Of a DNA stretch of 64,000 bases, positions 8,789 to 52,300 are shown in pieces. The stretch is from contig CALEHV010000044.1 of assembly GCA_937876465.1 (NCBI GenBank), forward strand, positions 9,841 to 73,840, in the 5' to 3' direction. A program made the position numbers and the translations under genes. Numbering within the stretch: the first letter of the stretch is position 1; each line of letters starts with the position of its first letter. This stretch comes from an uncultured Bacillota bacterium (GTDB lineage Bacteria > Bacillota_I > Bacilli_A > RFN20 > CAG-826). A model generated the notes under the pieces. That model worked only from the letters and a program-made list of their open reading frames with translations. It was not told the DNA's origin and did not search any database.

Positions 8789-11700
8789 ATGGGAAATTCT
8801 TTATCAACAGAATTATCTTTCAGAGAAAAACTTGCAAATAAGTTTGCCTTTTTAAAAGACATTCATTGTTTGTTTTATTTTGTACTTTTATTAATTGGTG
8901 TTGGTTTAGGATTTTTTGGTTACGCTTTATTTACTCAGAGATTTACAACTCCATATTCTGGAGATTTTGCTCAACAAGCCTATCAAGCTTATTATGATTT
9001 CTACGATGATTGGTGGACTTTCTTTAGAACAGGTAAGTTTCCTTTCTTTGATACCAATACTTTTTTAGGAGCAGACAACGTTGCTGCTAATACGTACTAT
9101 GGCCTTTTTTCGCCATTTACACTTCCAATTCTTTTTGTTCCAAGAAACTTCATTCCTCAAATGATGGCTATAGTCAGTATTGCTAGACTTGTAGTTGGAG
9201 GATTGCTCTTTAGAGTTTACTTAAAATATTTAGGTGCTAGCGAAAGAAGTGCGAGATTATTTGCCATTGCATATGCATTCACTGGTTGGATGGCATATTA
9301 CTTGTGGTTTAATCCATTTTACGAAGTAATGACTTTCTTCCCTTTAATAATGTTTGGTATTGAAAAAGTTATTAAAGAAAGAAAAATTTGGGCTGTCACA
9401 CTCGGCTTTTTCCTATTAGGTATTTCTAACTACTTCTTCCTTTTAACCGCCGGAGTATTTGGAGTTATTTACGCAGGTTTTAGATATTTCCAAACATTAA
9501 AGCAAAGAAACGTTAAAGAAAATCTTCTTGTAATTCTTTATGGCTTCTTAGGTTTCTTATTTGGCTTTGGTATGACAATGTTTTGTGTGTTACCGGCCGT
9601 TTTATCTAGTTTCTCTATAAATAGAGCAACAGAATCAAAGTATTTGCCTACATTGATAGAAGCATTTAAAAGCGGCAATTTACAACAAGCTTTCAAAATC
9701 ATTTTTACATGTTGGCGTGGAGATGTTGTTACCGGAACCGACTATAATGCTTACAAGTTCTCTTTTGCGTTTCCATTAGCAGAATATTTCTTCCCACCAA
9801 TATCGGATAGATTTGTTAATGTAATGCATTATCAATATTTCGAAAACACCGGATCCAGCATCTTTATCTATACCCCATGTATGATTTTGTTTGGATGTTC
9901 CATTTATCGTTCGTTTAAGAACAAGAAGATTTCACATTTTATAGCAATAATTCTTGGAACAGCATGCTTGTTTATTCCTTTCCTATATTTCCTTTGTGGT
10001 GCATTCGTAACTGCATACGGAAGATGGGAAATTGTTATCCCAATAATGATTTATGCTTACCTCGCTCTGAACTACGATCATTTGGATGAAATTAAGAGAC
10101 CTGTTGTAATTGTTTCTGGTGCACTCACTTGTGCTTGCATGATGGGAACCATTTTCTTAGCAAAGGCTGTTATCTCAACTTATGAGAATTTCTTAGACTT
10201 TGGCGAAGTGGTTTATATGATTATCTACGAAGTCGTTTTATGCGCTGCAGAAACCGCTCTATTTGCAGGCCTTTGGAAGAAAAAAAGCTTGCATCTCTCC
10301 ATTAAATTAACATTAATTGGCGAAATTATTGTTGTAGGAACATTAGTTGCAAACATCCACTGTTTACAAGACATTGATACCTCTGTTGGAGGTGGAATGC
10401 CATATGTCGAAATGGAAAGTGCTTTGGTTCAAAGAATTAACGAAATTGATAACTCTTACTTTAGAGTTCATAACTCAAGAGCATATGATGGGAATTTCAA
10501 TGTTCAAATGTTAGAAAACTATAACGGACTCGCTTGTTTCCATAGCTTCTATAACAACGATGTAGATGATTTCTTAAGATTCTCGCAAATAATGATGCAA
10601 GATTATTCATGGACAGGTGGCGATTTCTTTAAACGTGCCAACTTAGATGAATTCCTTGGAGTTAAGTACTACATTTCTAAAGATAGCGAAATGACTTTCT
10701 ACTATCCTGATGCAAACGGAAATATGCAACCTGTTGTATTTGATTTCAATGTTCCATTAAATTACGAAAAGATTGATAGCGGAGTCGAAGGCTATTCATT
10801 ATATAGAAACACACAACAGATTGAATTAGGTACTTCATACGACACAATTTATTACAAACGTAATTGTTCTGAAGGAATAGGAAATGCGTTCTATCCAGGT
10901 GGTAGTGCAGAAGCACTTATTCGTAACGAAGAAGCATACTTTAAGGGTGCGATCTTAAATGATGCTGATGTCTATGACATCCACGATACATATGGAGACA
11001 TCTTCTCTTATGAAGAAGCACCATCTATTTATTCTATGGATGCTATTAAAGTTAATTATGAAACTGAAGGCGTTTATAGAAACAAAGATAACAATTATTT
11101 TGATCCTCTCGACCCATATAGGGATATAAATGAAGATTGCAGAATTGCTGATCCAAACAATCCTGGCGATCCTATAAATAGAATTCAGATTTCATTTAAA
11201 CCTACTGGAAGTGAATATTTCCCATTAGGTGCTGAAGGATCTTATTACATGTTTGACTATCCAATTAGAGGCTGGAGCCGTGATTATAATGCAACAGTTT
11301 ATTTGATTGGCGAAGATGATTTAGGAAATCCAAAAGTAATAACATTTGATAACACAAGAAACGGTTATAGGGACAATTCAAAGTGTGTTAGAGCTTTATA
11401 TTCTAAAGAAAAAGTAAAACGTATTATTGTTTGCGTTGACGGAAACGCATTCTATTGGAGAGCTACTTCACCATATAGTCCTGAACAACTTATTAAGTTG
11501 TATTATGAACCATTTGAAAATGTTTCCGCACGTTTCCAAAAAGCAATTGATAATGGTTTGCAAAATATTGCATATGATGTGAATCGTTATACATTCTCAA
11601 CAAATTATTCTTCAAATCGTTTTGTTATTACTCAATTAGCTCATACAAAAGGTTGGAAGGTTGTCGGAACCGATTCAAATGGAGTAAAGCATAACCTTAA

Positions 11701-36340: not shown

Positions 36341-36370
36341 TTGACAGAAAAATATCCTTTTTCATATAAT
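36341..36370 (+). promoter_or_regulatory. sigma-A promoter of the ten-gene operon
   Basis: Consensus TTGACA (36341-46), an 18-nt spacer and consensus TATAAT (36365-70). The predicted TSS is about 36377, immediately 5' of the riboswitch aptamer. Confidence 0.8.
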
Positions 36371-36380
36371 TAAATTAGTC

Positions 36381-36446
36381 AAATGGCAAAGCTACAGCAA
36401 TGTAGTGACGCAAAACTATAGGGTCTCTCTGAGATAGCCAGGTGCC
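36381..36446 (+). promoter_or_regulatory. c-di-GMP-I (GEMM-I) riboswitch aptamer, copy 1
   Basis: aaatGGCAAA, then hairpin gctaca-GCAA-tgtagt (GNRA tetraloop), the linker GACGCAAAAC, a second hairpin cta-taggg-tctc-tct-gaga-tag with a 5' internal loop, and gccaggtgcc. This is the two-hairpin GEMM-I layout with the conserved GCAAA/ACGCAAA elements. It lies in a 5' UTR 98 nt upstream of the ATG at 36544. Confidence 0.8.
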
Positions 36447-36543
36447 TAGATTTATGGAAGATCGTTTAACCGGATGATAGGTGATCGATTCCTTAGTAAA
36501 TCGTTGGGACAACATAATCTATTACTAATATTGGAAGTATTAT

Positions 36544-37359
36544 ATGGTTGATTTCAAGTTGCTTTACAAACGCAAGGCGAAAAAGATCGTTCCAATAGTT
36601 GGAGGTTGCTGCCTCGGTGTTATTGCAGTCTTTATTGGAGTAGCACTATTGGGCCAACGTTCAGCTCCACTTACAGTATCTTTAAATAACTCTGGTGCAT
36701 CACTTGCATTAAGTAGTTCACAAAAAGAAGGTTCACCTAAGACTTCATTCCTTTTAACTAAAGGTGTTCCTGGATATACAGAAATTGACGGAAGATCTAT
36801 TTCTTCATATGAACAAACTATGGAGATTGATAGTGAATTCTCAGAATCTGTTTTGTCACAGGATAAAAAGTCTACACTATTTTTTAAATACACTTTCTTT
36901 GTTCACAATACTGGAAGTAAGAACGCAACTTATACCTTGAGTTTAAATGTATCAAATCCTAATAGAACAGCAGATAATTTTGATCTTGCCGATATTTTAC
37001 GTGTACGTTTTTATGAGAATGCAGATGAAAATACACACACATATAAGACATACGCAAAAGCAACAACATATTTTGATCCAAATGCTGGAACATATGTTGA
37101 AGGTAAGGAACATATATCTGGTGCTGATACACCTCTTGTTGACGAAAACTTTGTAAGTAATAAAACAATTCTTACAAGTACAACTGAAAACTTTGAACCA
37201 AATGCTGTAAAACGTTATACATTCCTTTTCTGGCTTGAAGGAAACGATCCTGATAGCGATGGAAAAGAAGAACCTATTGGTAGTAGTTTAGCTTTAGGAG
37301 TAGGCGTAGACGCACATGAAGCAGACCAACCAAGCGAAGAAACATCTCAAGAAGAATAG
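36544..37359 (+). CDS. N-terminally membrane-anchored TasA/camelysin-like protein (tentative), acidic C-terminus
   Basis: One N-terminal TM (IVPIVGGCCLGVIAVFIGVALL) without the AWF motif. It has beta-rich stretches (STLFFKYTFFVHNTGSKNATYTLSLNVS) and the C-terminal motif FLFWLEGNDPDSDG..SSLALGVGV, which is related to the (Y/I)(L/I)EGWD motif of the next two proteins. Confidence 0.5.
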   Translation: MVDFKLLYKRKAKKIVPIVGGCCLGVIAVFIGVALLGQRSAPLTVSLNNSGASLALSSSQKEGSPKTSFLLTKGVPGYTEIDGRSISSYEQTMEIDSEFSESVLSQDKKSTLFFKYTFFVHNTGSKNATYTLSLNVSNPNRTADNFDLADILRVRFYENADENTHTYKTYAKATTYFDPNAGTYVEGKEHISGADTPLVDENFVSNKTILTSTTENFEPNAVKRYTFLFWLEGNDPDSDGKEEPIGSSLALGVGVDAHEADQPSEETSQEE

Positions 37360-38377
37360 TTTAATCGCTTGTCTTTCAACAACCATCTTAGCATTGTCTC
37401 TCACAGCTGGTACCTGTGGGACTTTTGCTTGGTTCACGTATGCGACACGTACCTATGTTGAATACGAGGGCGTAACGATTGGAATGGGTGGTTCAATCCA
37501 ATTAGGCTTTGATCCACATTTAGATCTTACAAACTATGCAAACTATGGTTTAGAAAGAGAAGAATATGAAGGTCGTTATCTTTATTGGTCAAATGGCGAT
37601 GCTGATGAAAATACATTGAATTATATTCTTTCGTCTATGGGCTATGCTACAGATAAAATGAGTCCTGTTTCCAGCGGTTCTTATTCATATGGAGACAGTG
37701 ATTTTTCTTTGCATCGCGCGCCTCGCTTATACGAAGCAATACAACCAGAAGCAGAGAAAAAAGAATACATTTTCTTGCCTATGGTATTTAGAGTAACCGG
37801 AGATTTAGAACCTGATACATATGTTCCAAATCAATCAATCTATCTTTTAACCGCAAATGTTAAGAGTGAAGAGAATATTCGCAAGAGTATCCGCATACAT
37901 ACTTCAAATGCAGACAGCACACACTTAATTAATCCAACTATAGAAACTGATGGATCAATTAAAGTAGGTGGAGCATTAGATTTGAATGGTGATGGATACT
38001 ACGATACTTACGACGAAAATATTAATGTTTATGAGTTTATGTACGGTGAATACGAGGGCGACAAAGTCCATAAAAACACACCGGAAGCTCAAGATTCTGA
38101 CGTTCCTGAAAGCGAACGCACAACATTCTTAGCGCGCCATAAAATGGGTACATATGCGGTAGATGATACATTAAGCACTCCTAAAACTGCAGATTACGAA
38201 GGCTTTAGAAAATTTGCTAAGAAACAAACCCCAATTGCAAAGACCAACGAAGAGACATCAAATTATGCATTCGTTGATTTAACTGCATTTATTGAGGGTT
38301 GGGACTTATCTGTTATTGAAGCCGAAAAGGGCAATCAGTTTAGCCTAGAATTAAAATTTGGAATAGCTGAATTATGA
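37316..38377 (+). CDS. secreted protein with SipW-cognate-type signal peptide, paralogue A (minor fibre component candidate)
   Basis: ..LALSLTAGTCGTFAWFTYA... It shares LDLNGDGYYDTYDEN and C-terminal FIEGWDLS..FSLELKFG with the next ORF. It overlaps the upstream ORF by 44 nt. Confidence 0.6.
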   Translation: MKQTNQAKKHLKKNSLIACLSTTILALSLTAGTCGTFAWFTYATRTYVEYEGVTIGMGGSIQLGFDPHLDLTNYANYGLEREEYEGRYLYWSNGDADENTLNYILSSMGYATDKMSPVSSGSYSYGDSDFSLHRAPRLYEAIQPEAEKKEYIFLPMVFRVTGDLEPDTYVPNQSIYLLTANVKSEENIRKSIRIHTSNADSTHLINPTIETDGSIKVGGALDLNGDGYYDTYDENINVYEFMYGEYEGDKVHKNTPEAQDSDVPESERTTFLARHKMGTYAVDDTLSTPKTADYEGFRKFAKKQTPIAKTNEETSNYAFVDLTAFIEGWDLSVIEAEKGNQFSLELKFGIAEL

Positions 38378-39411
38378 GAAAAAGAACTGTTATTGGAATT
38401 GGTACATGTTTAATTGCGATTGCGTTATCTGCAAGCGTACTTTCAACAGTCGCGTGGTATAACGGTTCATCACACTTACAAATCGAGAACTTTAACATTG
38501 GTTTTTCGTCTAAGGAACTTAAAATTTCTACAGATAACGTAGATTTCAAGGATCGCTTAGGTAAAAACGATTTAAACCAAGTTGATAAGTTCATACCTGT
38601 AAGCAGCATGTTTTCATCATTCTGGTTAAATTCTAAACAGGAACAACCTGTATTTAGAAAAGGCTTTGATGAAGAAGAAGTTAGAAAAACTACTTATACA
38701 TCTATTGATGATTACGCAGTTGCTGAAAGTGGATTCTTGTCACAGGTTCTATATTTGAAAAGTGATACAGATGCATCTGCAACTCTAGACATAGAAAAAA
38801 CCTATGTCCGCCCTAACGAAGATGCAAATAATGATATTGCTAATAAATTAGCAAGTAAATATCCTGAAATGTCTCATGAACAGATTGTTAATAATTTAAA
38901 CAAGATTTCTGATTCATTACGTATGTCAATTCTTGTACTTGATGAGGAACAAGAACATGAATTAGACGATTATGCTTATTACATTATCGATCCACATAAA
39001 AATGGAGACACCCTCTATGGTGGACTTTTAGATAATGATTTAGACGGATATTACGATAATTACGATGGAAAAGAAGTGCTCTTTGGTGAAGCGAATAATG
39101 TTAGTGAGTCTACACTTGTGTACACTGATGAAAAAGCTCACCACGAAGGCAAATCTTATTCTATATTTGAAGCATCAACAAAAGATAATGTAAAACATTT
39201 AGACTTAGGAAAATCTGTTGATGCTGGTTTGCAAATTGCAAAAGAAAATTCTCTCAGTTTAGTTGAGTCTCAAGACATTCGAATCTCCCTTAAGACTAAT
39301 GTATCTAAACGAATTGTCTTCTCCCTTTACTTAGAAGGTTGGGATTTAGACAATACAAATTTATCAATGTATGCGCATTTTTATATGAGCCTTGTGTTCA
39401 AACTTGCGTAA
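38374..39411 (+). CDS. secreted protein with SipW-cognate-type signal peptide, paralogue B
   Basis: ..IAIALSASVLSTVAWYNGS.., LDNDLDGYYDNYDGK and C-terminal YLEGWDLDN..FYMSLVFK; ATGA overlap with the upstream ORF. Confidence 0.6.
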   Translation: MRKRTVIGIGTCLIAIALSASVLSTVAWYNGSSHLQIENFNIGFSSKELKISTDNVDFKDRLGKNDLNQVDKFIPVSSMFSSFWLNSKQEQPVFRKGFDEEEVRKTTYTSIDDYAVAESGFLSQVLYLKSDTDASATLDIEKTYVRPNEDANNDIANKLASKYPEMSHEQIVNNLNKISDSLRMSILVLDEEQEHELDDYAYYIIDPHKNGDTLYGGLLDNDLDGYYDNYDGKEVLFGEANNVSESTLVYTDEKAHHEGKSYSIFEASTKDNVKHLDLGKSVDAGLQIAKENSLSLVESQDIRISLKTNVSKRIVFSLYLEGWDLDNTNLSMYAHFYMSLVFKLA

Positions 39412-39434: not shown

Positions 39435-40970
39435 ATGGAAGACTATTTCGCATATTTAGGAAAAATGATTGTCCAATTTTTCCAAGATGTTGGACAGTGG
39501 TTTTGTGATTGGGTAGCTTTTAAATATTCAAGACTACCTGGTAATTTCGCCCGTTATGGTGATTATTTTGGTTCATATAGCGGCGGATTTGGCGTTGGAG
39601 GATGGATTATGTTCGTCGTCTTCGCCATTGTATTTGTTGGACTTATAGGAGCGATTTGTTATGGATTGTTCTTGTTGATTCGCAAATATGTTCGTTTCGT
39701 TAAAGGTGAACTCGATAAAGACGCTTTAAAGCTTCAAGTTGAAAGACTTAATTACGAACTCTATCAAATCATGCAAGAAAGAGATCGTATCTTGGATTTA
39801 AAAGTCAAAGCTCTTGGTATTAATACCAAAAAGCCAGCTGGAGAAGAAGGCGAGAAATCTGAAGAAGAAGAAACAGTTGAAGAAATTGCTTCCCGTTTCC
39901 CAAAGCTTACTCATGTTGACCACGAGTATGCTGGTAAGAACATGGAGATTCCAGAAGTTGAAGGCTTAACATTGAGACAATTATGTGAAAATTTTAGAAA
40001 CTTTGCTGCCTCTCAACTTGGTTTGTACTACACAATTACAACTATCCGTCAATTATTTGCCGGTATGGGCGCAGGTAAATTAGTTATTCTCGAAGGTATT
40101 TCTGGTACTGGTAAAACTTCCATGCCATATGCCTTAGGTAAATTCTTTGCTCACGATGCAGAAATCTGTTCAGTTCAACCAAACTGGAAAGATAGATCAG
40201 AACTTCTTGGTTATTACAACGAATTTACTAAGAAATTCAACGAATCTGAATTCTTACGTGCTTTATATACATGTAACTACAGAAGAGACTTTAACCTTAT
40301 CGTTCTCGATGAAATGAACTTGGCTCGTGTTGAATACTACTTTGCTGAATTCCTTTCTGTTTTGGAAATGCCTAACCCAAATGAATGGAACGTTGAAATG
40401 ATTGGTAGCCACGATCCAAACGATCCTAAGTTATTTAAAAACGGTAAACTCAAAATTCCTCAAAACGTTGTCTTCTTCGGAACAGCTAACAACGATGACT
40501 CTACATTTACTATTTCCGATAAAGTTTACGACCGTGCTATTTGTTTGTTCTTTGATAACAAAGGTATTGCTTTTGAAGCACCATACCAAGCACCAATGGT
40601 TATTCCGTTCTCACAAGTCCAAAAACTTTATGATGAAGCAGACGCTAAGTACCAAGTTGATGAAAAGACACTTGCTAAGTTTGCAACTCTTGATGACTTT
40701 GTTATTAAGAAATTCAGACTCGCATTTGGTAACCGTATTTTAAAACAATTGAAAAAATTCGTTCCATGCTTTGTTGCTTGTGGTGGAACAGAATTAGATG
40801 GAATTGACTTCATCTTTACAAATAAAATTCTTAAGAAATTCGAATCTTTAAACATTGGCTTCCTTAAAAACGAACTTAAAGAACTTGACGCAATGCTCAA
40901 TAAATTATTCGGATCAGGAACATTCCCAATGGCTCACAAATTCATCGAAAACATGCTTAGAATGAACTAA
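39435..40970 (+). CDS. membrane-tethered McrB-family (AAA_5-type) AAA+ NTPase
   Basis: An N-terminal TM helix (GGWIMFVVFAIVFVGLIGAICYGLFLLI) and a coiled-coil (LKLQVERLNYELYQIMQERDRILDLK). Walker A is GISGTGKTS (40095-40118) and Walker B IVLDEMNLARVEYYFAEFLSVLE (from 40299). FFGTANNDDSTFTISDKVYDRA is the McrB-clade pattern DEMNLA..VEYYF..GT(A/V)N.D(D/E)(S/T). Strong SD aggagg. Confidence 0.7.
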   Translation: MEDYFAYLGKMIVQFFQDVGQWFCDWVAFKYSRLPGNFARYGDYFGSYSGGFGVGGWIMFVVFAIVFVGLIGAICYGLFLLIRKYVRFVKGELDKDALKLQVERLNYELYQIMQERDRILDLKVKALGINTKKPAGEEGEKSEEEETVEEIASRFPKLTHVDHEYAGKNMEIPEVEGLTLRQLCENFRNFAASQLGLYYTITTIRQLFAGMGAGKLVILEGISGTGKTSMPYALGKFFAHDAEICSVQPNWKDRSELLGYYNEFTKKFNESEFLRALYTCNYRRDFNLIVLDEMNLARVEYYFAEFLSVLEMPNPNEWNVEMIGSHDPNDPKLFKNGKLKIPQNVVFFGTANNDDSTFTISDKVYDRAICLFFDNKGIAFEAPYQAPMVIPFSQVQKLYDEADAKYQVDEKTLAKFATLDDFVIKKFRLAFGNRILKQLKKFVPCFVACGGTELDGIDFIFTNKILKKFESLNIGFLKNELKELDAMLNKLFGSGTFPMAHKFIENMLRMN

Positions 40971-40974
40971 TTTT

Positions 40975-42843
40975 ATGGCTAAGAAATTATCTACTTATCA
41001 AAAATTGCAACGTAGTTACGTAAAGAAAACTAGTTCTTTGTATTCTAAAAACGAAGGCAAAGAAGTTTTCGATATGCTCTCCAAGGGTGAAAACAAATAT
41101 TTAAAACTAAATAGAATGGAAACATCTTCAATGGATATGACATGGATCAAACGTATTGAAGATTGTTTGGGTTCTATTGGAGAAATTGTTCAAAACCCAA
41201 AGAAGACCATTCAAACGTTAACAGAAGTTGTTCAAGTTGAAAAAGTTAAGAAAATTGGAATTGAAACAGTCCAACACCTTTCAAGCCATACTCAATTCAT
41301 TAAGACAGTTGATGAAAACGGAAATGTTACTCCGTCAAAATTATTAAACGTTTTCAATGATGACTACTATGCCATCTACGAAAACAAATTTATTGCTACA
41401 TTATTAAGACATTTAATTGTGTTCGTTGAAAAACGTTACGAATTCGTTATGCAACAAGCAAAAATGACTGATGTCTCTTTGCTTTGGGCTAAGAATCGTA
41501 CTCAAGTAGGCGATGCAGTTATTGAAATTGAAACAAAGGTTCGTTATTCTCAACCAGCTGAACAAGCAGCTGCTGATAAACTCAAAGGTTACATTAAGCA
41601 AATTAAAGATATTAGAAAATATCTCAAATTCTATATGCGAAGTGAATTTATGAATATCTTGAGAAGAGAAAAAGATGTTCGTAATCCAATTTTGCAAACT
41701 AACATTATTCGTAAAAACCCAAAATATCATAAATGTTATTTATTATGGTTATTCATCGAACGTTATAGAGAAGCAGGAATTGAAGCAAAGGTAGAAGAAA
41801 ACTATGCTGATTTAACTAAACAAGAAATTGAAGAATTAAATCAAGTTATGTGTTCTAACTTCTTAGCTTTAAAAGGAAAAGACTTTAAAAAATCTAACAA
41901 GAAACAAAAAGTTTATAAGCCAAAAATCCTTAATACCTATGATGATGTTATCTATAAACCTGCTTATTATGATGGACCGATAGAGTACATTCGTGTGGAT
42001 GATAAATATAGAGAATATAGTGAATCCTTACACGATCTTCCACTTCATCCAACTCGTAAAGTAGCTGAATACGAAGAAGAAAAATACCAAGAGAATAAAG
42101 CCACTAGAGAAAAGACAAAACAAATTGATAGCTTGTTAAAACGTAAAGAAGCTGAAAAAGCAAATTACGAAAAACAAGAAGCTTTAGCTGAGATTAGAGA
42201 AAAAGAAAAAGACGAATACATCAAGGCTAGAGCAGAAAAAGAAATACGTGAAGAAGCAATCGAAAAAGTTGATAAAGCACGTAAAGAATTAATTAAGAAG
42301 GCTAAGAAAACTTCTACAAAGAAAGCCAAACCTGTGGTTAAAAAGGAAGAGCCTAAGAAAGAAGAGGTAAAACCAGAAGTTAAGGTTGAAGAACCTAAAC
42401 CAAAAGTTGAACCTAAGAAAGAAGTTAAGGCAGAACAACCAAAACCAAAGAAGGCTAAACCAAAAGCCGCTCCTAAGAAAGTTAGTAAACCTAAAAAACA
42501 AGTAGAGGAGAAGAAGAGAGAACCAAAACCAGAGGTAAAACCTGAGGTCAAGGTTGAAAAACCAAAGGCAGAGCCAAAGAAGGCTAAACCAAAAGCTGCT
42601 CCTAAGAAAGCAGTCAAGAAGGAAGAGCCTAAAAAAGAAGTTAAGAAGGCTGAACCTAAGAAAGAAGTTAAGGTTGAAAAACCAAAACCAGCTCCTAAGA
42701 AAGTTGTTAAACCAAAAGAACAACCTAAGGAGAAAAAAGTTGAACCTAAAGTACAAGCAAAACCTGTTGTTAAACAAGAAGAACCAAAACAGGTTAAGAA
42801 ACCTTTTGTATTAATTGGAAATTATAGAAACAAGGTGAAATAG
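40975..42843 (+). CDS. McrC/DUF2357-like N-terminal domain protein lacking a recognisable nuclease, with coiled-coil and lysine/proline-rich (histone-H1-like) tail
   Basis: 622 aa with no signal peptide. The N-terminal ~330 aa contain ..VEKVKKIGIETVQHLSSHTQFI..YAIYENKFIATLLRHLIVFVEKRY.., resembling the DUF2357 partner of McrB-like ATPases. Then comes an E/K coiled coil and about 160 aa of KPK/KKE/PKKA repeats. No PD-(D/E)xK motif was found by eye. Confidence 0.45.
   Translation: MAKKLSTYQKLQRSYVKKTSSLYSKNEGKEVFDMLSKGENKYLKLNRMETSSMDMTWIKRIEDCLGSIGEIVQNPKKTIQTLTEVVQVEKVKKIGIETVQHLSSHTQFIKTVDENGNVTPSKLLNVFNDDYYAIYENKFIATLLRHLIVFVEKRYEFVMQQAKMTDVSLLWAKNRTQVGDAVIEIETKVRYSQPAEQAAADKLKGYIKQIKDIRKYLKFYMRSEFMNILRREKDVRNPILQTNIIRKNPKYHKCYLLWLFIERYREAGIEAKVEENYADLTKQEIEELNQVMCSNFLALKGKDFKKSNKKQKVYKPKILNTYDDVIYKPAYYDGPIEYIRVDDKYREYSESLHDLPLHPTRKVAEYEEEKYQENKATREKTKQIDSLLKRKEAEKANYEKQEALAEIREKEKDEYIKARAEKEIREEAIEKVDKARKELIKKAKKTSTKKAKPVVKKEEPKKEEVKPEVKVEEPKPKVEPKKEVKAEQPKPKKAKPKAAPKKVSKPKKQVEEKKREPKPEVKPEVKVEKPKAEPKKAKPKAAPKKAVKKEEPKKEVKKAEPKKEVKVEKPKPAPKKVVKPKEQPKEKKVEPKVQAKPVVKQEEPKQVKKPFVLIGNYRNKVK
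42330..42800 (+). repeat. degenerate in-frame tandem repeats encoding the K/P/E/A/V-rich tail
   Basis: aaggctaaaccaaaagc(c/t)gctcctaagaaag occurs at 42451 and 42580 (129-nt period). The EVKVE(E/K)PKP-coding unit recurs near 42374, 42541 and 42662. Confidence 0.8.
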
Positions 42844-42846
42844 TTG

Positions 42847-43680
42847 ATGGCAAAAAAGCAAAAGAAACCAAAAAGCAAACAACGAAAAATACTTGAGTGG
42901 GTTGCCACTGGTGTCTTTTTAGCTTTAATAGGCACAGTTGCTGGTTTTAGAATTTATCAAGCAGCATCTGGCGATCATGCTATTTTTGGAACTCAGTTTC
43001 CAGTCGTTTTAACAGATTCTATGGAAACCGACTATATGGTCGGCGATGTATTGAAGGTTAAAGCAGTTTCTCCTCAAGAAGTAAAAGAAGCTTTTGATAA
43101 AGGCGAAACTATTGATATTTCATTCAAATGGAATATTGGAACAGCTTCAAAACCAAATATTCAAATGATGACCCATAGAATCATCGATGTAATGTACTTT
43201 GTAAATACAGAAGACAACTACTCTTCTAATTACAAATACAATGCAAATACTTATTCATTTAATAACGATCAATACCATTACACCTTTGTTACTCACGGAA
43301 TCAACAAACATTCTAGCCAAACAAAAGAAGGCGAAGATTTAACAAATCAACTTCAATTTTCAAATGAATCACAATTCGTTGGAAGAGTTACTGGAAAGTC
43401 ACAATTCCTAAGAGTAGCAAACCAAATATTTACATCTGTTTGGACCCTTATCCTTTTAATACTAATTCCTGGATTATATATAGTGATCACCTCTGTTATC
43501 GATTTATTTAAAGCATTTGACGATGACGAGGATACAGAGAAACTTGTTTTAGAAGGCGGTGGAACTACACCCCCTCTAGAAGAGAAGAAGGAAGATCCTT
43601 TAAAAGGGTTAAGCGAAGAAGATAAAGAAAGACTTAAAAAAGAAATGCTTGAAGAACTTTTAAAGAGAGGAAAGAAATAA
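42847..43680 (+). CDS. sipW: archaeal/ER-type signal peptidase I (SipW-like) with C-terminal TM and charged tail
   Basis: An N-terminal TM, the catalytic Ser box VVLTDSMETDYMVGDVLKV (Ser codon 43018-20), the His box MMTHRIIDV, a later FVTHGINK..FVGRV region and a C-terminal TM (VWTLILLILIPGLYIVITSVI). It follows directly after the upstream stop (tag ttg ATG). Confidence 0.7.
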   Translation: MAKKQKKPKSKQRKILEWVATGVFLALIGTVAGFRIYQAASGDHAIFGTQFPVVLTDSMETDYMVGDVLKVKAVSPQEVKEAFDKGETIDISFKWNIGTASKPNIQMMTHRIIDVMYFVNTEDNYSSNYKYNANTYSFNNDQYHYTFVTHGINKHSSQTKEGEDLTNQLQFSNESQFVGRVTGKSQFLRVANQIFTSVWTLILLILIPGLYIVITSVIDLFKAFDDDEDTEKLVLEGGGTTPPLEEKKEDPLKGLSEEDKERLKKEMLEELLKRGKK

Positions 43681-45960: not shown

Positions 45961-48900
45961 ATGACTATGAAGAAAAATTCTAAACGAGATATTATTACTC
46001 TTAAAAGTTATCTAAAACGTCACGTTATTCTTCTTTTAGTGATGTGCCTTTTATTCTTGTTACTTATTGGCTTAGTTGTAGTTTCGTCAATCTTATTAAA
46101 AGACGACATGATTCTTTATGTCTTGTATGGTTGCTGTGGAGTATTCTTAATTGCTCTTGTGGTCATGTTTATAGTCTTTAATGTTAGATTCTTTAGAATC
46201 ATGTATAACGACGCATTAATGGTTTCTAAACGTAATTTTGAAGCATTAGCAAACTTTGATAAAGAATTAGAATATTGTTCACGTAACGACTTTGCAGAAT
46301 TTAGAGAACTAAATAGTTCTTTTAAAGACTTATCAAAGAACTTGGATGGAAGAACAATTATTTCTAAAGCGTTAAGCTACGACTCAATTGAACTTGAATA
46401 TTTAGATGAAGAAAAATATCAAGTCAAAGAATCTTCTTTAAAGAATAAAATCGGAGAATTGATTCTTGCTCGAGAATCCTTTAGAAACGCCTTAATTGAT
46501 ATTAGTTATGATTTACGTGACGAAACAATTAATGAGAAAGATCACGAAGTAATCTTAAAGTATATAAAGAATAATTTGCCGTATGATCACACATTAGTTG
46601 CTTTAAAAGATAACGCGCAAGGATATTTGATTTATATACCTGCTCTTGATAGCGTTTCTCAAATTAAAGAAGAACTATCTTCCTTGATGAAGAATATTTC
46701 ACTTATTAAAAAGGTTAACGCTAATAGAACAATTGTTAGCCCATCTGTTTCAATGGTTATGTATCCTTATTCAGACATAGACAATCTGTTTAATGATTTA
46801 AGCTATGCAAAGAGAAGCAAATTACCTCTTAATTTCTATATCCCTAAGCGTAAGGATGAGAAGAACAAAAAGATGCTTGTGTCTTCTTTAAACATGAACA
46901 ACGTCTTTAGATTGCAAGAACAAATATCTTCAATTGATACTTCTCCAGATAACTATGATAAGAATCTAAAACTTATTTATGAGATGGTTAAAGAAATCTC
47001 TAACTACTATAACTTCTCCTGTGGTGGATGTATTTTCTTCGATCACGAAAAGAATGGATTCTATTCCAAATTTAGTCATAGTCCAACGAATTCTTCCATA
47101 TTTAAAGATAACGTTCGTATAAACAAAGAATTCGTTAATGTTGTTGTTGAAGTAGCCGATATAGACAACAGTTATTACTTCTCATCTCGTAAACACGTTA
47201 ACGATGATTTTGCTCACTTTATGGACAAATATCATATTAAATCTGGATTGTTCTATGTTGTTAAAACTAATAATAACGTAATTGGACTTCTTTACTTTGT
47301 TAAGAAGTCATCAGATTTAATGTTTGATTCATTCATGAAAGAAAATTTAATTACTTCGTGTTCTTTAATTAGTAATTTCTTTAAGGAAACAAATTCAATT
47401 AAATTAGCTTCTGTCATGTCAAATAGATTTAACGACATGGTTAAATTCTCCAATTCGTTGATTTACTCAATTGATAAAGAAACATATGAAATTGCTATGT
47501 TAAGCGATTCGTTAAGACGCTTGCTACCGAAAGTTCAAGCTGGAGATAAATGTTATAAGGCGTTGTATGATTTAGACGCCCCATGTAAGAATTGTCCTTT
47601 ATTGAAGAACAAACATATGATTTCATCCTTGTGCGGTGGAAATTATGAATCTATGAGAATCTTGCAAATTAAGAATGATTCATCTGCTCATATCTTATTG
47701 AAATCAAACGATAATAAGTTCACATATGAACGTTATGACCAAGAAACGCTTCTTGCAACATTCTTCTCGTTTAAAGAAACGATGGAGAAATATTTGTCAG
47801 TTGGTTTATTAGGAAACGTTTTATTCGTCTCTGTAAAGAATATACAGGATATCATTAACGACATAGGAAATGCAGGTTTTGCTAACGCTTTGAAACAATT
47901 CTGTAATGGAGTAGTTGGCATCTATCAAAAAATGATTGATGTTTATTATTATTCTAAAGACACAATAGCTCTTATTATGCCTAATTCTTCTAGAGAAGAC
48001 TTAGTTAACCTTGCTGAGGCTATTTCAGATGGCGAAATAGAAGTTAAGGTCAATGATAAAGATATACGCTTGAATTTGGTTTATTTAGCAAAAGCCTATA
48101 CAAACGAACAAACATTTGAACAACTTGTTGAAACATTTGAAGAAAACCTTATTCAAGTACGTAGTATGCCAGTCGATGAGATTTACTTTGTTGATGCAAA
48201 TTACAAACGTAATGCTTCTAAAGAAGGTTACTTATTCGAAACCTTACAAGACGCATTCGAAAACAAAACATTCCAAGTCTATTTCCAACCAATTGTTAGA
48301 AACTCAGATCGTCTTATTGAAGGTTCGGAGTTGCTCTTAAAGGTCTTTGACCAAGAGGCAAATGCTTATATTGATATTGCACACGCTCTTCAAGTAGCTG
48401 AGAAGCGCGGATACACTTCTAATATCGCTTTAGGATTGCTTGATTACGTTGAAGGAATAATCAAAAAATATGGTTTTACATTCTTCTTAACAAGTGGACT
48501 TAATCACTTATCTTTAAACATTAATCACACATTCTTAAAAGATGGAAATTTCATCAATAAATGCTCAAAAATTGTATCTGAAAATTCACTTCCAAAAGGA
48601 TTCCTATCCTTCGAAATTGATGAAGAAGACGCAGCCAACAATTTAGATGTATTTACTTCAGTTAAGAAAGAAATTGAAGATGCTGGATGCTTGCTTTTAT
48701 GCGATAACTTTAGAGGTGAATTCACAAGTCCTAAAGTATTAGCTGAAGCCGGTTTCAGCGGAGTTAAGATTGACTCTAATCTCGTTGAAATCATTAGAGA
48801 TGGTGAAACAAATAAACGCATCATGAACATCTGGAGCGATGTTGTAAAAGCTCATATCAATATCTTCTTTACCGGTGTTGCAACACGTATTATTTCAGAA

Positions 48901-49026
48901 GAAATTGTCTTTGAAGATCATGATTCTTACGTTCAAGGAAACTACTTCTTCGCTCCTCAAAGTGAAGAGGAAATGTTTGAATCAATCCGTCAACGTAACA
49001 TGAAAGATAAGGAAATGGACAATTAG
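45961..49026 (+). CDS. large membrane protein: 2 TM + ~500-aa unknown region with Cys cluster + degenerate GGDEF + degenerate EAL (c-di-GMP receptor candidate)
   Basis: TM helices are at the N-terminus, with a Cys cluster CYKALYDLDAPCKNCP...LCGG (about 47551-47640). The GGDEF position reads YSKDT. The EAL domain is recognisable (FQVYFQPIV..) but reads ELL (48328-36) rather than EAL, DNFRG (48703-) rather than DDFG(T/S)G and FTGVAT rather than AEGVE. The better-spaced start is the ATG at 45967, after SD aggagg. Confidence 0.65.
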   Translation: MTMKKNSKRDIITLKSYLKRHVILLLVMCLLFLLLIGLVVVSSILLKDDMILYVLYGCCGVFLIALVVMFIVFNVRFFRIMYNDALMVSKRNFEALANFDKELEYCSRNDFAEFRELNSSFKDLSKNLDGRTIISKALSYDSIELEYLDEEKYQVKESSLKNKIGELILARESFRNALIDISYDLRDETINEKDHEVILKYIKNNLPYDHTLVALKDNAQGYLIYIPALDSVSQIKEELSSLMKNISLIKKVNANRTIVSPSVSMVMYPYSDIDNLFNDLSYAKRSKLPLNFYIPKRKDEKNKKMLVSSLNMNNVFRLQEQISSIDTSPDNYDKNLKLIYEMVKEISNYYNFSCGGCIFFDHEKNGFYSKFSHSPTNSSIFKDNVRINKEFVNVVVEVADIDNSYYFSSRKHVNDDFAHFMDKYHIKSGLFYVVKTNNNVIGLLYFVKKSSDLMFDSFMKENLITSCSLISNFFKETNSIKLASVMSNRFNDMVKFSNSLIYSIDKETYEIAMLSDSLRRLLPKVQAGDKCYKALYDLDAPCKNCPLLKNKHMISSLCGGNYESMRILQIKNDSSAHILLKSNDNKFTYERYDQETLLATFFSFKETMEKYLSVGLLGNVLFVSVKNIQDIINDIGNAGFANALKQFCNGVVGIYQKMIDVYYYSKDTIALIMPNSSREDLVNLAEAISDGEIEVKVNDKDIRLNLVYLAKAYTNEQTFEQLVETFEENLIQVRSMPVDEIYFVDANYKRNASKEGYLFETLQDAFENKTFQVYFQPIVRNSDRLIEGSELLLKVFDQEANAYIDIAHALQVAEKRGYTSNIALGLLDYVEGIIKKYGFTFFLTSGLNHLSLNINHTFLKDGNFINKCSKIVSENSLPKGFLSFEIDEEDAANNLDVFTSVKKEIEDAGCLLLCDNFRGEFTSPKVLAEAGFSGVKIDSNLVEIIRDGETNKRIMNIWSDVVKAHINIFFTGVATRIISEEIVFEDHDSYVQGNYFFAPQSEEEMFESIRQRNMKDKEMDN

Positions 49027-49040
49027 CCCAAAAATGAATA

Positions 49041-49073
49041 AAGATGTGTAAAATTACACATCTTTTTCTTTTG
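49041..49073 (+). terminator. rho-independent terminator ending the ten-gene operon
   Basis: Stem aagatgtgta (49041-50) / tacacatctt (49055-64), loop aaat, then tttctttt. Confidence 0.85.
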
Positions 49074-49218: not shown

Positions 49219-49233
49219 ATAAGTAAAGATAGA

Positions 49234-49299
49234 AAATAGCAAAACTACAGCAATGTAGTGACGCAAAACTAAAGGGTCTCTAAGAGATAGCCAGCTGCC
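49234..49299 (+). promoter_or_regulatory. c-di-GMP-I (GEMM-I) riboswitch aptamer, copy 2
   Basis: It aligns without gaps to copy 1 with 6 substitutions in 66 nt (manual alignment), and has the same GCAA-capped hairpin, GACGCAAAAC linker and second hairpin. Confidence 0.8.
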
Positions 49300-49333
49300 T
49301 ATAAGAATTTGTCGGTGTCTGGCTTTTTAATTT
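49289..49333 (+). terminator. intrinsic terminator forming the expression platform of riboswitch copy 2
   Basis: agccag (49289-94, the 3' part of the aptamer) pairs with ctggct (49319-24). The stem is extended by tgcc/ggtg (C-G and G.U pairs) and followed by ttttaattt. Aptamer folding and terminator folding are therefore mutually exclusive. Confidence 0.65.
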
Positions 49334-49354: not shown

Positions 49355-52300
49355 ATGAATCGTCTTCAAAAAAAGATTATTACAATTGCGTTAGCGTTAG
49401 GTAACATTGTTTTATCGTGCGTCGTTGCTGCTACTGCTACATACGCTTGGTTTAAAGCTAGTAATGCTACAATTACAACTCAATCCGCTTCTACAACAAT
49501 CAAATCTGAAGCTGGTGGTTCAACACTTCAATGGGAAATCTTAAAGTTTGATGATAACGAGAAGAAAGGAATTTCATATAGAGAAAACGATGAGTTCTTC
49601 CTTCAACCTTACGATCAATACTTAACTGCTAAAAATAAACATACAAACGTTATTCTTTGGGCCGATGTAATGGTTTCCAATTTTACTAGTGCAAATCAAT
49701 TGTATGTTGATATTGAGTGTTCTCCAGATCATGACCCTGTTTATTCAAGTACAGCCACACCTGAAGAAAAGGTTCCAAGCTATACCTCAAATATATGTCA
49801 ATTCAAATCGACAGTTTACTCATATACTGATGCAGATGATAACGAAGTTGTAGTTAATGATGTCTTAGATAACACAAACGCTGCTACTCGTTATGAAACC
49901 ACAACAAACTTCTTTGCCGGAATTAAAACTCCAGGGACACGATTTGTTGCATTACATAACAGCACTCCAAACAAAGATCATTCAATTACCCTTTGTCCAA
50001 ATTTTGATATTGGTGCATCAACTGCCAAGAAAATTACAATTGCAGTTGAATGTTCATATAACGAAAAATTAGTTGCTCACTATGCTAATGGTCGTTTAGG
50101 CACGATTAATTTAGCAGGCGACATTACAAGTTTTAATTTTCGCACAGGCGCATCATACAGTGGTGCATACGTCAAAGTCACAAATCAATCACAGTTAGAT
50201 ACATCAGGCCGTTATATGATTACTTATGACGGAACAGAGTATGCTGGTGATGATATGAAAGCTGCTTTTAATGGTAGCGGAACATCTTCAGAGGATTTCA
50301 CTGGAAAATTAAACTATCGAGATGTCTTTGCTCGTAAAGGTAGAATTACCGAGACCGAAGTTACTCATGCACAATCCTGGGATTACAACATCGCAGACAG
50401 TAAGTTAACATCCAATTCCGGATATGTAGTTGGTGCTACAGGTTCAGGAATGGGCGCTTCAAAATCCGGTTCTTATACAAACACACTTACTTACAATTCT
50501 GGATTAGTAGATACAGGATCTAATTCAAAATATTTAAATCACAATGCTACTGCTGGTGGCACCAAATATAACTATTACGATTCAGCTTCTGGAACAAAGA
50601 GAAAATCTCCAGAATTTTATCGTTATGATGCAAGCGCATTTGGTGACATGATTTTGTCCGGAATTCAATTAGGCGGTTCAATTAATCACCAATTAGAAAA
50701 GGGCCAACCATTTAGTTATGGTGGTACAGTTACTGCTGTTTATAACGAAGGCACAGCTTCTGAATTTACAGAGAATATTCCTGTTAACGATCCAAACTTA
50801 TCCTTTACTGGATACGATATGAATAATGACGGTAACTATCTTGTTACTGTTTCCTATACAGATGTAGAAGACAATATTACTGTTACAGCAAATTACAACT
50901 TAGAGGTTTATACTCCTGAAGCTACTTTAGTTAGCTTATCAATTGCTGGTCAACAAACCCAATTCGTTGAAGGAGATACATTTACTTTAGGCGATAATGC
51001 TGTTATTACTGCTCATTATAGTGATGGTACAAATCCTGTAATTCAAAACAACGATTCACGTTTGACTATTAATGGTCCTACACAACAGCAAATGGATACC
51101 GAAGGAACATATGAAGTTAATATCTCATTTAATGATGGTACAACAACTAAATCTATTGAACCTTATGATATTGAAGTTGTTGCTCAGACAGCAGCTGTAT
51201 ATCAAAGAATAACTTCTACTTCAGATTTAACAAATGGAACTTATCTTTTTGTCCATGAAAATAATAGTGTCGCATTAAATGGTGGACTTTCAACAATTGA
51301 TGTTGTGTCTAATACAATTTCTGTTTCAATTAGTAATTATCAAATTGAGGCAACAGCGGAAGTTGATGCTGCTGCTTTTACATATAATTCAACAACAAAG
51401 TATTTTATGAACGCTAATAATAAATATCTTTCAAACAGTAGCGATATTGATTTAGTTGATACTGGAGTTGCTCATAATGTTTCTTTTGATTCGGATAACG
51501 CAATTATTAAAATTGGAACAGAAAGTAGCTCACCTAGATTACGTTTTAACAATAATGATGGTCAAAAACGTTTTAGATATTATACAAATGACAACATGGA
51601 CGCAATCCAACTTTATAAAAAAGTAAATGTATCACCATTAACTTCCATCACTTTAAGTAACACAACAAACACATATTATACAGGTGATACTTTTGTTAAT
51701 CCTACAATCACTGCTCATTATAAAAATGGAACTCAAAACAACATTGATCCTTCTCAATGTAGTATTGTTGACCAAGCAACAGGCTCAAGCCCTGATTTAA
51801 CAACAGCTGGAGTAAAGACTATTGAAGTTTCATATACTGAAAATGGTGTTACAAAATCAGATACTTATGACATTACAGTTACACAGACATTGCCAATTTC
51901 TTTAACTAACCTCAGTGGTTATAAGACACAGTTCTATACAGGTGATACTTTTGTTATTGATTCTTCAGGAAATTCTTTCTCTGCTTTAGTTACTTATAAT
52001 AGTCCGGCTACAAAAACAGTCCATTCATCTGATGTCTCTCATTCAACTCCAGACATGAGTACAGCTGGACAAAAAACAATTACAATTTCCTATACAGAAA
52101 ACGGAACAACAGTTAGTGCTACATATAATATTACAGTTACTCAAAAAGCAATATCTTCAATTGCAGTAACTACAATGCCTAGTAAAACAACATATACTCA
52201 AGGTGAATCTCTAAGTACATCTGGTATCACTGTTACTGCAACATATAATAATGGCAGTCAAGAAAACGTTACATCTGGTTGTACATACAGCCCAACAACT

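Follow-up and report, generated by a model that had tools for sequence, protein, structure and literature searches.

What does a McrC-like protein do when its nuclease is gone and it ends in a long lysine-rich tail? McrBC is the textbook GTP-dependent restriction enzyme, and the question is raised by a gene at positions 40975..42843 of the 64,000-nucleotide (nt) stretch analyzed here, hereafter the window (positions 9,841 to 73,840 of the forward strand of contig CALEHV010000044.1, GenBank assembly GCA_937876465.1), from an uncultured Bacillota bacterium (RFN20; CAG-826) with a genome of 1.37 Mb at 33% GC. The reading that we favor, with somewhat better than even confidence, is that the product is the nuclease-less McrC-like partner of a membrane-anchored McrB-like GTPase in a CoCoPALM system, that its tail is a flexible tether or spacer, and that the module serves a surface fiber and not restriction. 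The parts of the gene on which this reading draws are as follows:

40975..42843, plus strand: McrC-like (DUF2357) protein gene of a CoCoPALM system, 622 residues, an uninterrupted open reading frame (ORF)
41149..41478, plus strand: match to Pfam DUF2357 (PF09823), profile positions 86-197 of 251, residues 59-168, including Y135-E136-N137 and R154
41467..41556, plus strand: long beta-hairpin "stalk" in AlphaFold2 models, residues 165-194, strands E165-178 and E181-194, predicted local distance difference test score (pLDDT) ~85-90
41686..41727, plus strand: PILQTNIIRKNPKY, the block most strongly conserved among homologues, residues 238-251 (T242 and N243 invariant in 134 sequences)
41935..42012, plus strand: TYDDVIYKPAYYDGPIEYIRVDDKYR, possible vestige of a PD...DxK beta-hairpin, residues 321-346, pLDDT <55
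42076..42318, plus strand: continuous charged alpha-helix of ~80 residues in AlphaFold2 models, residues 368-448, pLDDT 84-90
42310..42804, plus strand: PEVK-type polyampholyte tail, residues 446-610, disordered as judged from composition, no family match
42445-42481 and 42574-42610, plus strand: near-exact 37-nt repeat pair (one mismatch) at an offset of 129 nt
42601-42672, plus strand: 27-nt tandem repeat, 2.7 copies (TRF)
42805..42840, plus strand: FVLIGNYRNKVK, conserved C-terminal hydrophobic/basic peptide, residues 611-622

The full-length protein has no match in Pfam, NCBIfam or PADLOC, but its first 300-400 residues alone match DUF2357, the N-domain of McrC, above cut-off (residues 1-400 with the tail removed: 32.7 bits, E 5.9e-8, cut-off 23.3), and a six-frame search of the genome returned the same match at 32.3 bits; in PADLOC and NCBIfam the N-domain alone is without a match. 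The DUF2357 match is lost in the full-length scan because the low-complexity tail suppresses it, and most homologues are therefore annotated as "hypothetical", a systematic effect of practical consequence for these proteins. A homologue search retrieved 562 proteins, many with a precomputed PF09823 match and two named "DUF2357 domain-containing protein", and an exhaustive search of 50%-identity representatives returned 1378 clusters at E<=0.001. Half of 151 genomes of the order carry a DUF2357 match, nearly all of the CoCoPALM-like type. Across 134 sequences, down to ~23% identity, P120, Y135, E136, N137, R154, T242 and N243 are invariant. The N-terminal similarity to DUF2357/McrC proposed in the original prediction is thus borne out once the tail is cut off, and all the peptide strings on which that prediction drew are present in the 622-residue ORF, namely VEKVKKIGIETVQHLSSHTQFI (residues 88-109), YAIYENKFIATLL (132-144), NPKYHKCYLLWLFIERY (248-264), the E/K-rich helix (392-432), KAEPKKAKPKAAPKK (531-545) and EVKVEKPKP (564-572).

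The same features appear in both AlphaFold2 models (mean pLDDT 74-76), namely a helical bundle (H129-162, H197-221, H249-267 and H282-299), the hairpin and the long helix. By extension from the published description of DUF2357 (PMC11090510), the hairpin may insert into the hexamer of the McrB-like protein. A long E/K-rich helix following the N-domain had been anticipated from the sequence and is recovered in the models as the ~80-residue charged helix; of its residues 376-445, 59% are charged (K/E/R/D).

The nuclease found in canonical McrC is missing. Nowhere in the genome is PF04411 (PDDEXK_7) matched, with the threshold relaxed to E<=10, the AlphaFold2 models have no compact fold in residues 300-360, and no nuclease is among the Foldseek matches of either model. 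From the end of the bundle (~residue 299) to the start of the long helix (368) there are ~60 residues with pLDDT 47-64, a gap too short for the alpha-beta-beta-beta-alpha-beta nuclease core. Thus, the ancestral PD-(D/E)xK nuclease has been lost from the McrC-like protein, in agreement with the original prediction, and a cryptic nuclease fold looked for in residues 150-400 was not detectable. The accompanying claim that the protein lacks any PD-(D/E)xK pattern is correct as regards a nuclease domain, none being detectable, but not as regards the pattern, since a D...DxK string is present (D323/D324 ... R340-V-D342-D-K344-Y). When the profile of the family was compared by hhalign with a DUF2357-PDDEXK_7 protein of 814 residues from a same-genus genome (L017) and 30 relatives, a single stretch of 14-18 columns was aligned, placing GPIEYIRVDDKYR (residues 333-346) opposite GAVSYIHFDAKYR, the catalytic DxK strand (HFDAKYR motif), with a match that is not significant (E 0.046, probability 1%). 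Upstream of this stretch, TYDD (321-324) occupies the place of the "PD" aspartate. K344 is retained in 43 of 60 close homologues and in 20 of 134 distant ones. The ~25-residue D...DxK hairpin is possibly a vestige of the lost nuclease, and not a cryptic enzyme, as judged from its sequence. Assignment as a canonical McrC (DUF2357 plus PD-(D/E)xK nuclease) was rejected on the absence of PF04411, the variability of K344 and the lack of a modeled fold.

The gene is embedded in an operon with the following elements:

36341-36370, plus strand: consensus sigma-70 promoter (12/12), heading the operon
36375-36449, plus strand: cyclic di-GMP (c-di-GMP)-I riboswitch (RF01051, 53.6 bits), likewise at its head
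36544..39411, plus strand: three putative TasA-like fiber-subunit genes (by reading of the sequence), kept upstream of McrB-like/McrC-like pairs
39435..40970, plus strand: McrB-like NTPase with a transmembrane (TM) helix and putative coiled coil at its N-terminus, GISGTGKT (Walker A), VLDEMN (Walker B) and ANNDD
42844..43680, plus strand: SipW-like signal peptidase, translationally coupled to the McrC-like ORF (NF046067 E 1.6e-10; TIGR02228)
45961-49026: long EAL-domain protein, the last gene of the operon
49040-49065: terminator-like hairpin closing the operon

The order of genes is thus three TasA-like genes, McrB-like, McrC-like, SipW, an EAL protein, a PNP_UDP protein and the long EAL-domain protein. 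Two of the three TasA-like products have SipW-type signal peptides (..GTFAWFT.., ..STVAWYN..); none matches a fiber or TasA family, and their weak sub-threshold matches are unrelated (e.g., DUF2613, SwrA, HMW1). The McrB-like protein matches AAA_5 (E 0.002) and PADLOC PDC-M26A (E 4.5e-39), and on reading its sequence we find a TM helix at ~residues 55-80, a heptad-like helix at ~90-126 and the motif GTANNDDST, which was aligned by eye with GTVNIDETT of the McrB-like protein of L017. The predicted pairing of the McrC-like protein with a McrB-like NTPase is accordingly supported by an adjoining McrB-type gene with DEMN and NNDD motifs and a PDC-M26A match, which ends 4 nt before the McrC-like ATG. 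At the other junction the stop TAG (42841-42843) lies directly against TTG 42844 / ATG 42847 of the SipW-like gene, as had been noted before, and the ribosome-binding site of the latter (AAGGTGA, 42832-42838) is located inside the last codons of the McrC-like ORF. The McrC-like protein itself has no N-terminal hydrophobic segment when its sequence is read by eye, consistent with the signal peptide reported missing, and is cytoplasmic. The NF046067 match of the SipW-like protein falls below the model's curated 190-bit cut-off.

This arrangement is maintained over considerable distances. The full operon gene order is preserved in relatives at 69% and 49% identity, and its core (TasA-like upstream, McrB-like, McrC-like, SipW and/or EAL) occurs in several other families of the order at ~28-34% identity. 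Co-oriented pairing of the McrB-like and McrC-like genes is retained in all related loci examined, and in many of them a SipW-like gene lies downstream of the McrC-like gene. A variant at 8085-12525 of L050 (G032:C15) has a DUF2357 protein with a McrB-like gene on either side (McrB-McrC-McrB), and its neighborhood contains neither SipW nor TasA-like matches. Beyond its last TM helix the SipW-like protein has a C-terminal cytoplasmic tail of ~50 residues (window 43519-43680) whose end is a conserved amphipathic helix, ..DPLKGLSxxDKERLKKEMLEELLKxGKK; loci of closer relatives have this helix whatever the charge of the McrC-like tail, and the cytoplasmic McrB/McrC-like module may dock on it. A second c-di-GMP-I riboswitch, at 49228-49302 (RF01051, 57.2 bits), precedes the gene of a 1448-residue protein at 49355.

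CoCoPALM was named by Bell, Makarova, Wolf and Koonin (eLife 2024, PMC11090510) in a few sentences, with analysis deferred, and was defined by an NxD McrB-like GTPase with TM and coiled coil, an association with a signal peptidase and coiled coils on both subunits; the N-terminus of the McrB-like protein was described as an FtsB-like TM plus coiled coil (PMC11090510). The locus resembles this description in a McrB-like protein whose N-terminus reads as a TM helix and a probable coiled coil, a DUF2357 McrC homologue with a long helix, and tight linkage in Bacillota to a gene of the signal-peptidase family, here the SipW-like gene. We take the McrC-like protein to be a member of this named yet uncharacterized system. 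In the same paper and its supplementary text we found no disordered tail, polymorphism, charge inversion, C-terminal peptide or domain, or riboswitch/EAL context, and a literature search turned up no further paper that mentions CoCoPALM or links McrB to SipW, the sole McrB and SipW match being an E. coli genotype string, which was discarded. With canonical McrC (E. coli, Thermococcus gammatolerans) and the L017 protein, the protein shares an N-terminal DUF2357 and a gene position directly downstream of a McrB-family NTPase; it differs in having no nuclease domain and no detectable fold match to solved McrC, in a partner that is membrane-anchored, and in residing in a fiber operon and not in a defense locus. 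The CnuC proteins of CoCoNuT systems, NxD-clade McrC homologues that often lack PD-(D/E)xK or have it inactivated and carry coiled coils (PMC11090510), are similar in often being nuclease-less and, if the long helix here is a coiled coil, in that feature too, but CoCoNuTs always come with RNA-binding domains and with an accessory nuclease such as HEPN, and nothing of this kind is seen here.

The 165 residues of the tail (446-610) consist of 37% K, 18% P, 17% E, 14% V and 8% A, with a net charge of +34, a charged fraction of 0.55 and a net charge per residue of +0.21. Charges are well mixed (kappa ~0.12 against 0.19 +/- 0.03 in shuffles), at least one proline occurs every 10 residues, and the tail has no sequence match in Pfam, NCBIfam or PDB and no known nucleic-acid-binding domain. 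From this composition we infer a polyampholyte in an expanded state, which neither folds nor collapses. Histone H1 had been proposed as the model, and its C-terminal domain is likewise Lys/Pro/Ala-rich, disordered and built of short repeats; the label nevertheless does not hold, since the 17% Glu is intermixed with Lys and lowers the charge density to the value given, the tail contains 14% Val, and there is neither a winged-helix globular domain nor a Pfam or PDB sequence match. The PEVK region of titin and the Pro-rich (Glu-Pro/Lys-Pro) spacer of TonB are extended non-folding polyampholytes, and the tail (86% P/E/V/K) appears closer to these than to histone H1, a physical likeness and not homology. 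A comparable P/E/K/V linker occurs in a DnaX-like ORF, one of just 5 ORFs with such a segment in the genome, which agrees with the compositional habit of the lineage suggested earlier. Other P/E/K/A/V-rich low-complexity segments, found in ORFs on contigs C25 (+23470), C3 (-1041) and C23 (+41171) as KPAEKK repeats, an acidic EP-rich segment and an AKKAPAKK segment, support a lineage habit of such linkers.

The DNA of the tail is more repetitive than its narrow choice of codons accounts for: a repeat as long as the 37-nt pair was reached in 0 of 300 codon shuffles (longest 27 nt). That pair (span 42445..42610) is nested in a 92-nt repeat of 75% identity, and other diverged repeats measure 56, 92 and 110 nt. 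In-frame repeats are therefore real, as predicted, although the "129-nt duplication" (42451/42580) overstates them, as they are diverged and complete 129-nt units are only 64% identical. The forecast that repeat number varies between strains proved right, as judged from assembled contigs. In L016, a contig of ~97% nucleotide identity that derives from a different sample, the gene for this protein is shorter by exactly 27 nt (42634-42660), one repeat unit; in eight 90%-identity clusters, with full-length members of 613/622, 612-622, 627/632, 749-834, 846/887 and 634-650 residues, all within-cluster indels inside the protein (1-84 residues) lie beyond residue 445 and none falls in the N-domain or the helix. 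The density of substitutions is also higher in the tail.

The variation widens across the family. Among ~230 of 265 retrieved homologues, those whose match reaches the long helix, the post-helix region ranges from 0 to ~1600 residues and from -177 to +64 in net charge. Tails of the closest clade (64-76% identity) are K/P/E/V-rich and mostly +16 to +64 (as low as -3 in exceptional cases); a sister clade (homologues P0028-P0088, 51-59% identity) has acidic E/P/V spacers with 2-9 AT-hook-like RGGARPGAGR(K/P)(P/R)K repeats; in more distant clades the tails are purely acidic. Tails of >100 residues are the rule in the family. Two same-genus orthologues (L009 and L010) have tails of 12 and 39 residues and retain the McrB-like gene upstream and SipW downstream. 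Plain tails are replaced elsewhere by folded-looking units: in L051 (10137-15356, plus strand) and L052 (6123-10385, minus strand), from the same genus, the McrC-like homologues of 1740 and 1421 residues carry 5-7 tandem ~200-residue repeats (YRYxYSYSARLIRSGEERQDFYN...KVKGKTLCVYLPL...) separated by P/E/V linkers, and in L049 four GRYVTFYDRKGxFHKFKL units occupy this place.

In most homologues the variable region is followed by a small domain or by a conserved peptide of short length. Here it ends in FVLIGNYRNKVK, for which the closest clades have ..LGTFRSKKK, ..LSSFRSKKK or ..ILNVKNSRTGKKFxRR. A terminal domain of ~50 residues, KIPGKFIVKTxxGYYVxxxKYSxxKxDAKIFDDFNLANDIKKxxGGKVVKL, with no Pfam match, is found in 35 homologues (P0105-P0243), and the terminal FVLIGNY of the McrC-like protein may be a remnant of its first strand. 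FtsZ has a linker of variable length followed by a short conserved terminal peptide, and the tail with FVLIGNYRNKVK has the same architecture. The FtsZ C-terminus of this genome (..DEFLPSFLKSKHIG) resembles FVLIGNYRNKVK only loosely, and mimicry of the FtsZ C-terminal peptide was reduced to speculation.

These observations bear on three other explanations. The original prediction saw in the polycationic tail a functional polyanion-binding module, acting on DNA, RNA, polyphosphate, anionic lipids or teichoic-acid precursors at a membrane-bound motor, an explanation that we regard as unlikely although it has several points in its favor: a net charge of +34 with 37% Lys, nearly uniformly positive tails in relatives at 64-76% identity, the AT-hook-like repeats of the sister clade, and descent from McrBC proteins that act on DNA. 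The comparison with homologues does not support the claim, since their tails run from -177 to +64 and are missing in same-genus orthologues that have the operon; orthologues at a greater distance, set in the same kind of operon, have strongly acidic tails or none, the Glu mixed with the Lys leaves a charge density of just +0.21 per residue, and neither a nucleic-acid-binding domain nor a family match accompanies the lysines. The opposite explanation, that the tail is functionally neutral, a low-complexity sequence expanded by slippage in an AT-rich genome and tolerated at the C-terminus, would account for the rapid indels and substitutions, the orthologues without a tail and the similar linkers in 4 other proteins of the genome. 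It seems to us very doubtful, since the reading frame and the conserved C-terminal peptide are kept across the tail in most homologues, prolines are regularly spaced, charges are mixed above the level of shuffles, and tails of >100 residues are the rule. We therefore consider the tail most likely to be a fast-evolving, dispensable spacer and flexible tether; a conserved role in binding polyanions is not supported.

The remaining explanation concerns the whole module, which would still be a Type IV restriction-like defense system with a cryptic minimal PD-(D/E)xK nuclease in residues ~280-360. Homology to McrB and McrC, the match of the McrB-like protein to the PADLOC candidate defense family PDC-M26A and the canonical spacing of D323/D324 ... 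D342-x-K344, in the only region that hhalign aligns to HFDAKYR, speak for it. We judge it highly improbable, given that the hhalign match is not significant (probability ~1%), PF04411 is absent from the genome, the ~60 available residues are too few for the core and are modeled as disordered, K344 is not conserved in the wider family, the N-domain is without a PADLOC match, and the setting is a conserved riboswitch-controlled fiber operon and not a defense island.

For the favored nuclease-less CoCoPALM partner we propose the following mechanism. By homology with McrBC, the DUF2357 bundle with its ~30-residue hairpin would dock in the ring of the membrane-anchored McrB-like GTPase and the docked N-domain would stimulate NTP hydrolysis. 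In place of the nuclease, the protein carries the modeled ~80-residue charged helix, the 165-residue K/E/V polyampholyte and the 12-residue C-terminal peptide; the helix would mediate pairing or spacing, and the tail would probably present the peptide as a flexible tether or spacer and probably also keep the motor complex sterically spaced. Sequence, length and charge sign of the tail would drift freely as its in-frame repeats undergo replication slippage; some unspecific attraction to anionic membrane or nucleic acid may come with the net positive charge of this clade, a property that is not conserved. The module would be co-transcribed under the c-di-GMP-I riboswitch with TasA-like, SipW and c-di-GMP phosphodiesterase-type proteins, and because of this company it most likely serves the assembly or regulation of a SipW-processed surface fiber rather than DNA restriction.

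Several observations weigh against this proposal. Foldseek comparison of both models with PDB retrieved no solved McrC and nothing at E<=0.001, phmmer and profile hmmsearch against PDB sequences gave low-complexity noise and no McrC, and hhalign against canonical DUF2357-nuclease proteins aligned just 14 columns; the McrC link therefore rests on the Pfam hidden Markov model, the published census and the pairing of the genes. Docking and stimulation of the GTPase are proposed purely by homology with McrBC, and the binding partners considered for the C-terminal peptide are candidates only. The long helix was not flagged by a crude a/d heptad scan, so the label "coiled coil" for residues 368-448 is unproven; the modeled helix could be a single-alpha-helix spacer just as well as the coiled coil that Bell et al. 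report in this class. Tail charge shows no covariation with the McrB-like linker or the SipW cytoplasmic tail. Finally, tails in the closest clade are nearly always net positive (+16 to +64, exceptions to -3), so that a clade-specific electrostatic function may exist.

A bolder version of the fiber reading, which we hold to be quite unlikely, is that the McrB-like/McrC-like pair constitutes an unrecognized GTP-driven, c-di-GMP-gated cytoplasmic motor for the SipW-processed TasA-like fiber. The tail would then be a length-tunable tether that couples the motor to a second partner through the terminal peptide or, in other lineages, through tandem small domains or AT-hook-like repeats; this partner could be SipW, through its conserved cytoplasmic helix, or the division machinery or DNA. 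Were this true, strain-level repeat slippage in the tail would tune fiber output or coupling.

Our analysis adds to CoCoPALM an anatomy of its McrC-like subunit, from the residues invariant in the family and the hairpin stalk, through what may be a remnant of the nuclease, to the charged helix and a hypervariable tether with a conserved peptide. What appears to be new is that the tether is hypervariable with a conserved end, that tail charge is inverted from clade to clade, that a trace of the nuclease may persist, and that the tail masks the Pfam domain. The polycationic tail is, on this account, the lineage-specific flavor of a drifting spacer, and attention shifts to the C-terminal peptide and to the interface between the N-domain and the GTPase. 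McrBC-type subunits are here nuclease-less and fixed in a riboswitch-controlled surface-fiber operon of small-genome gut Bacilli.

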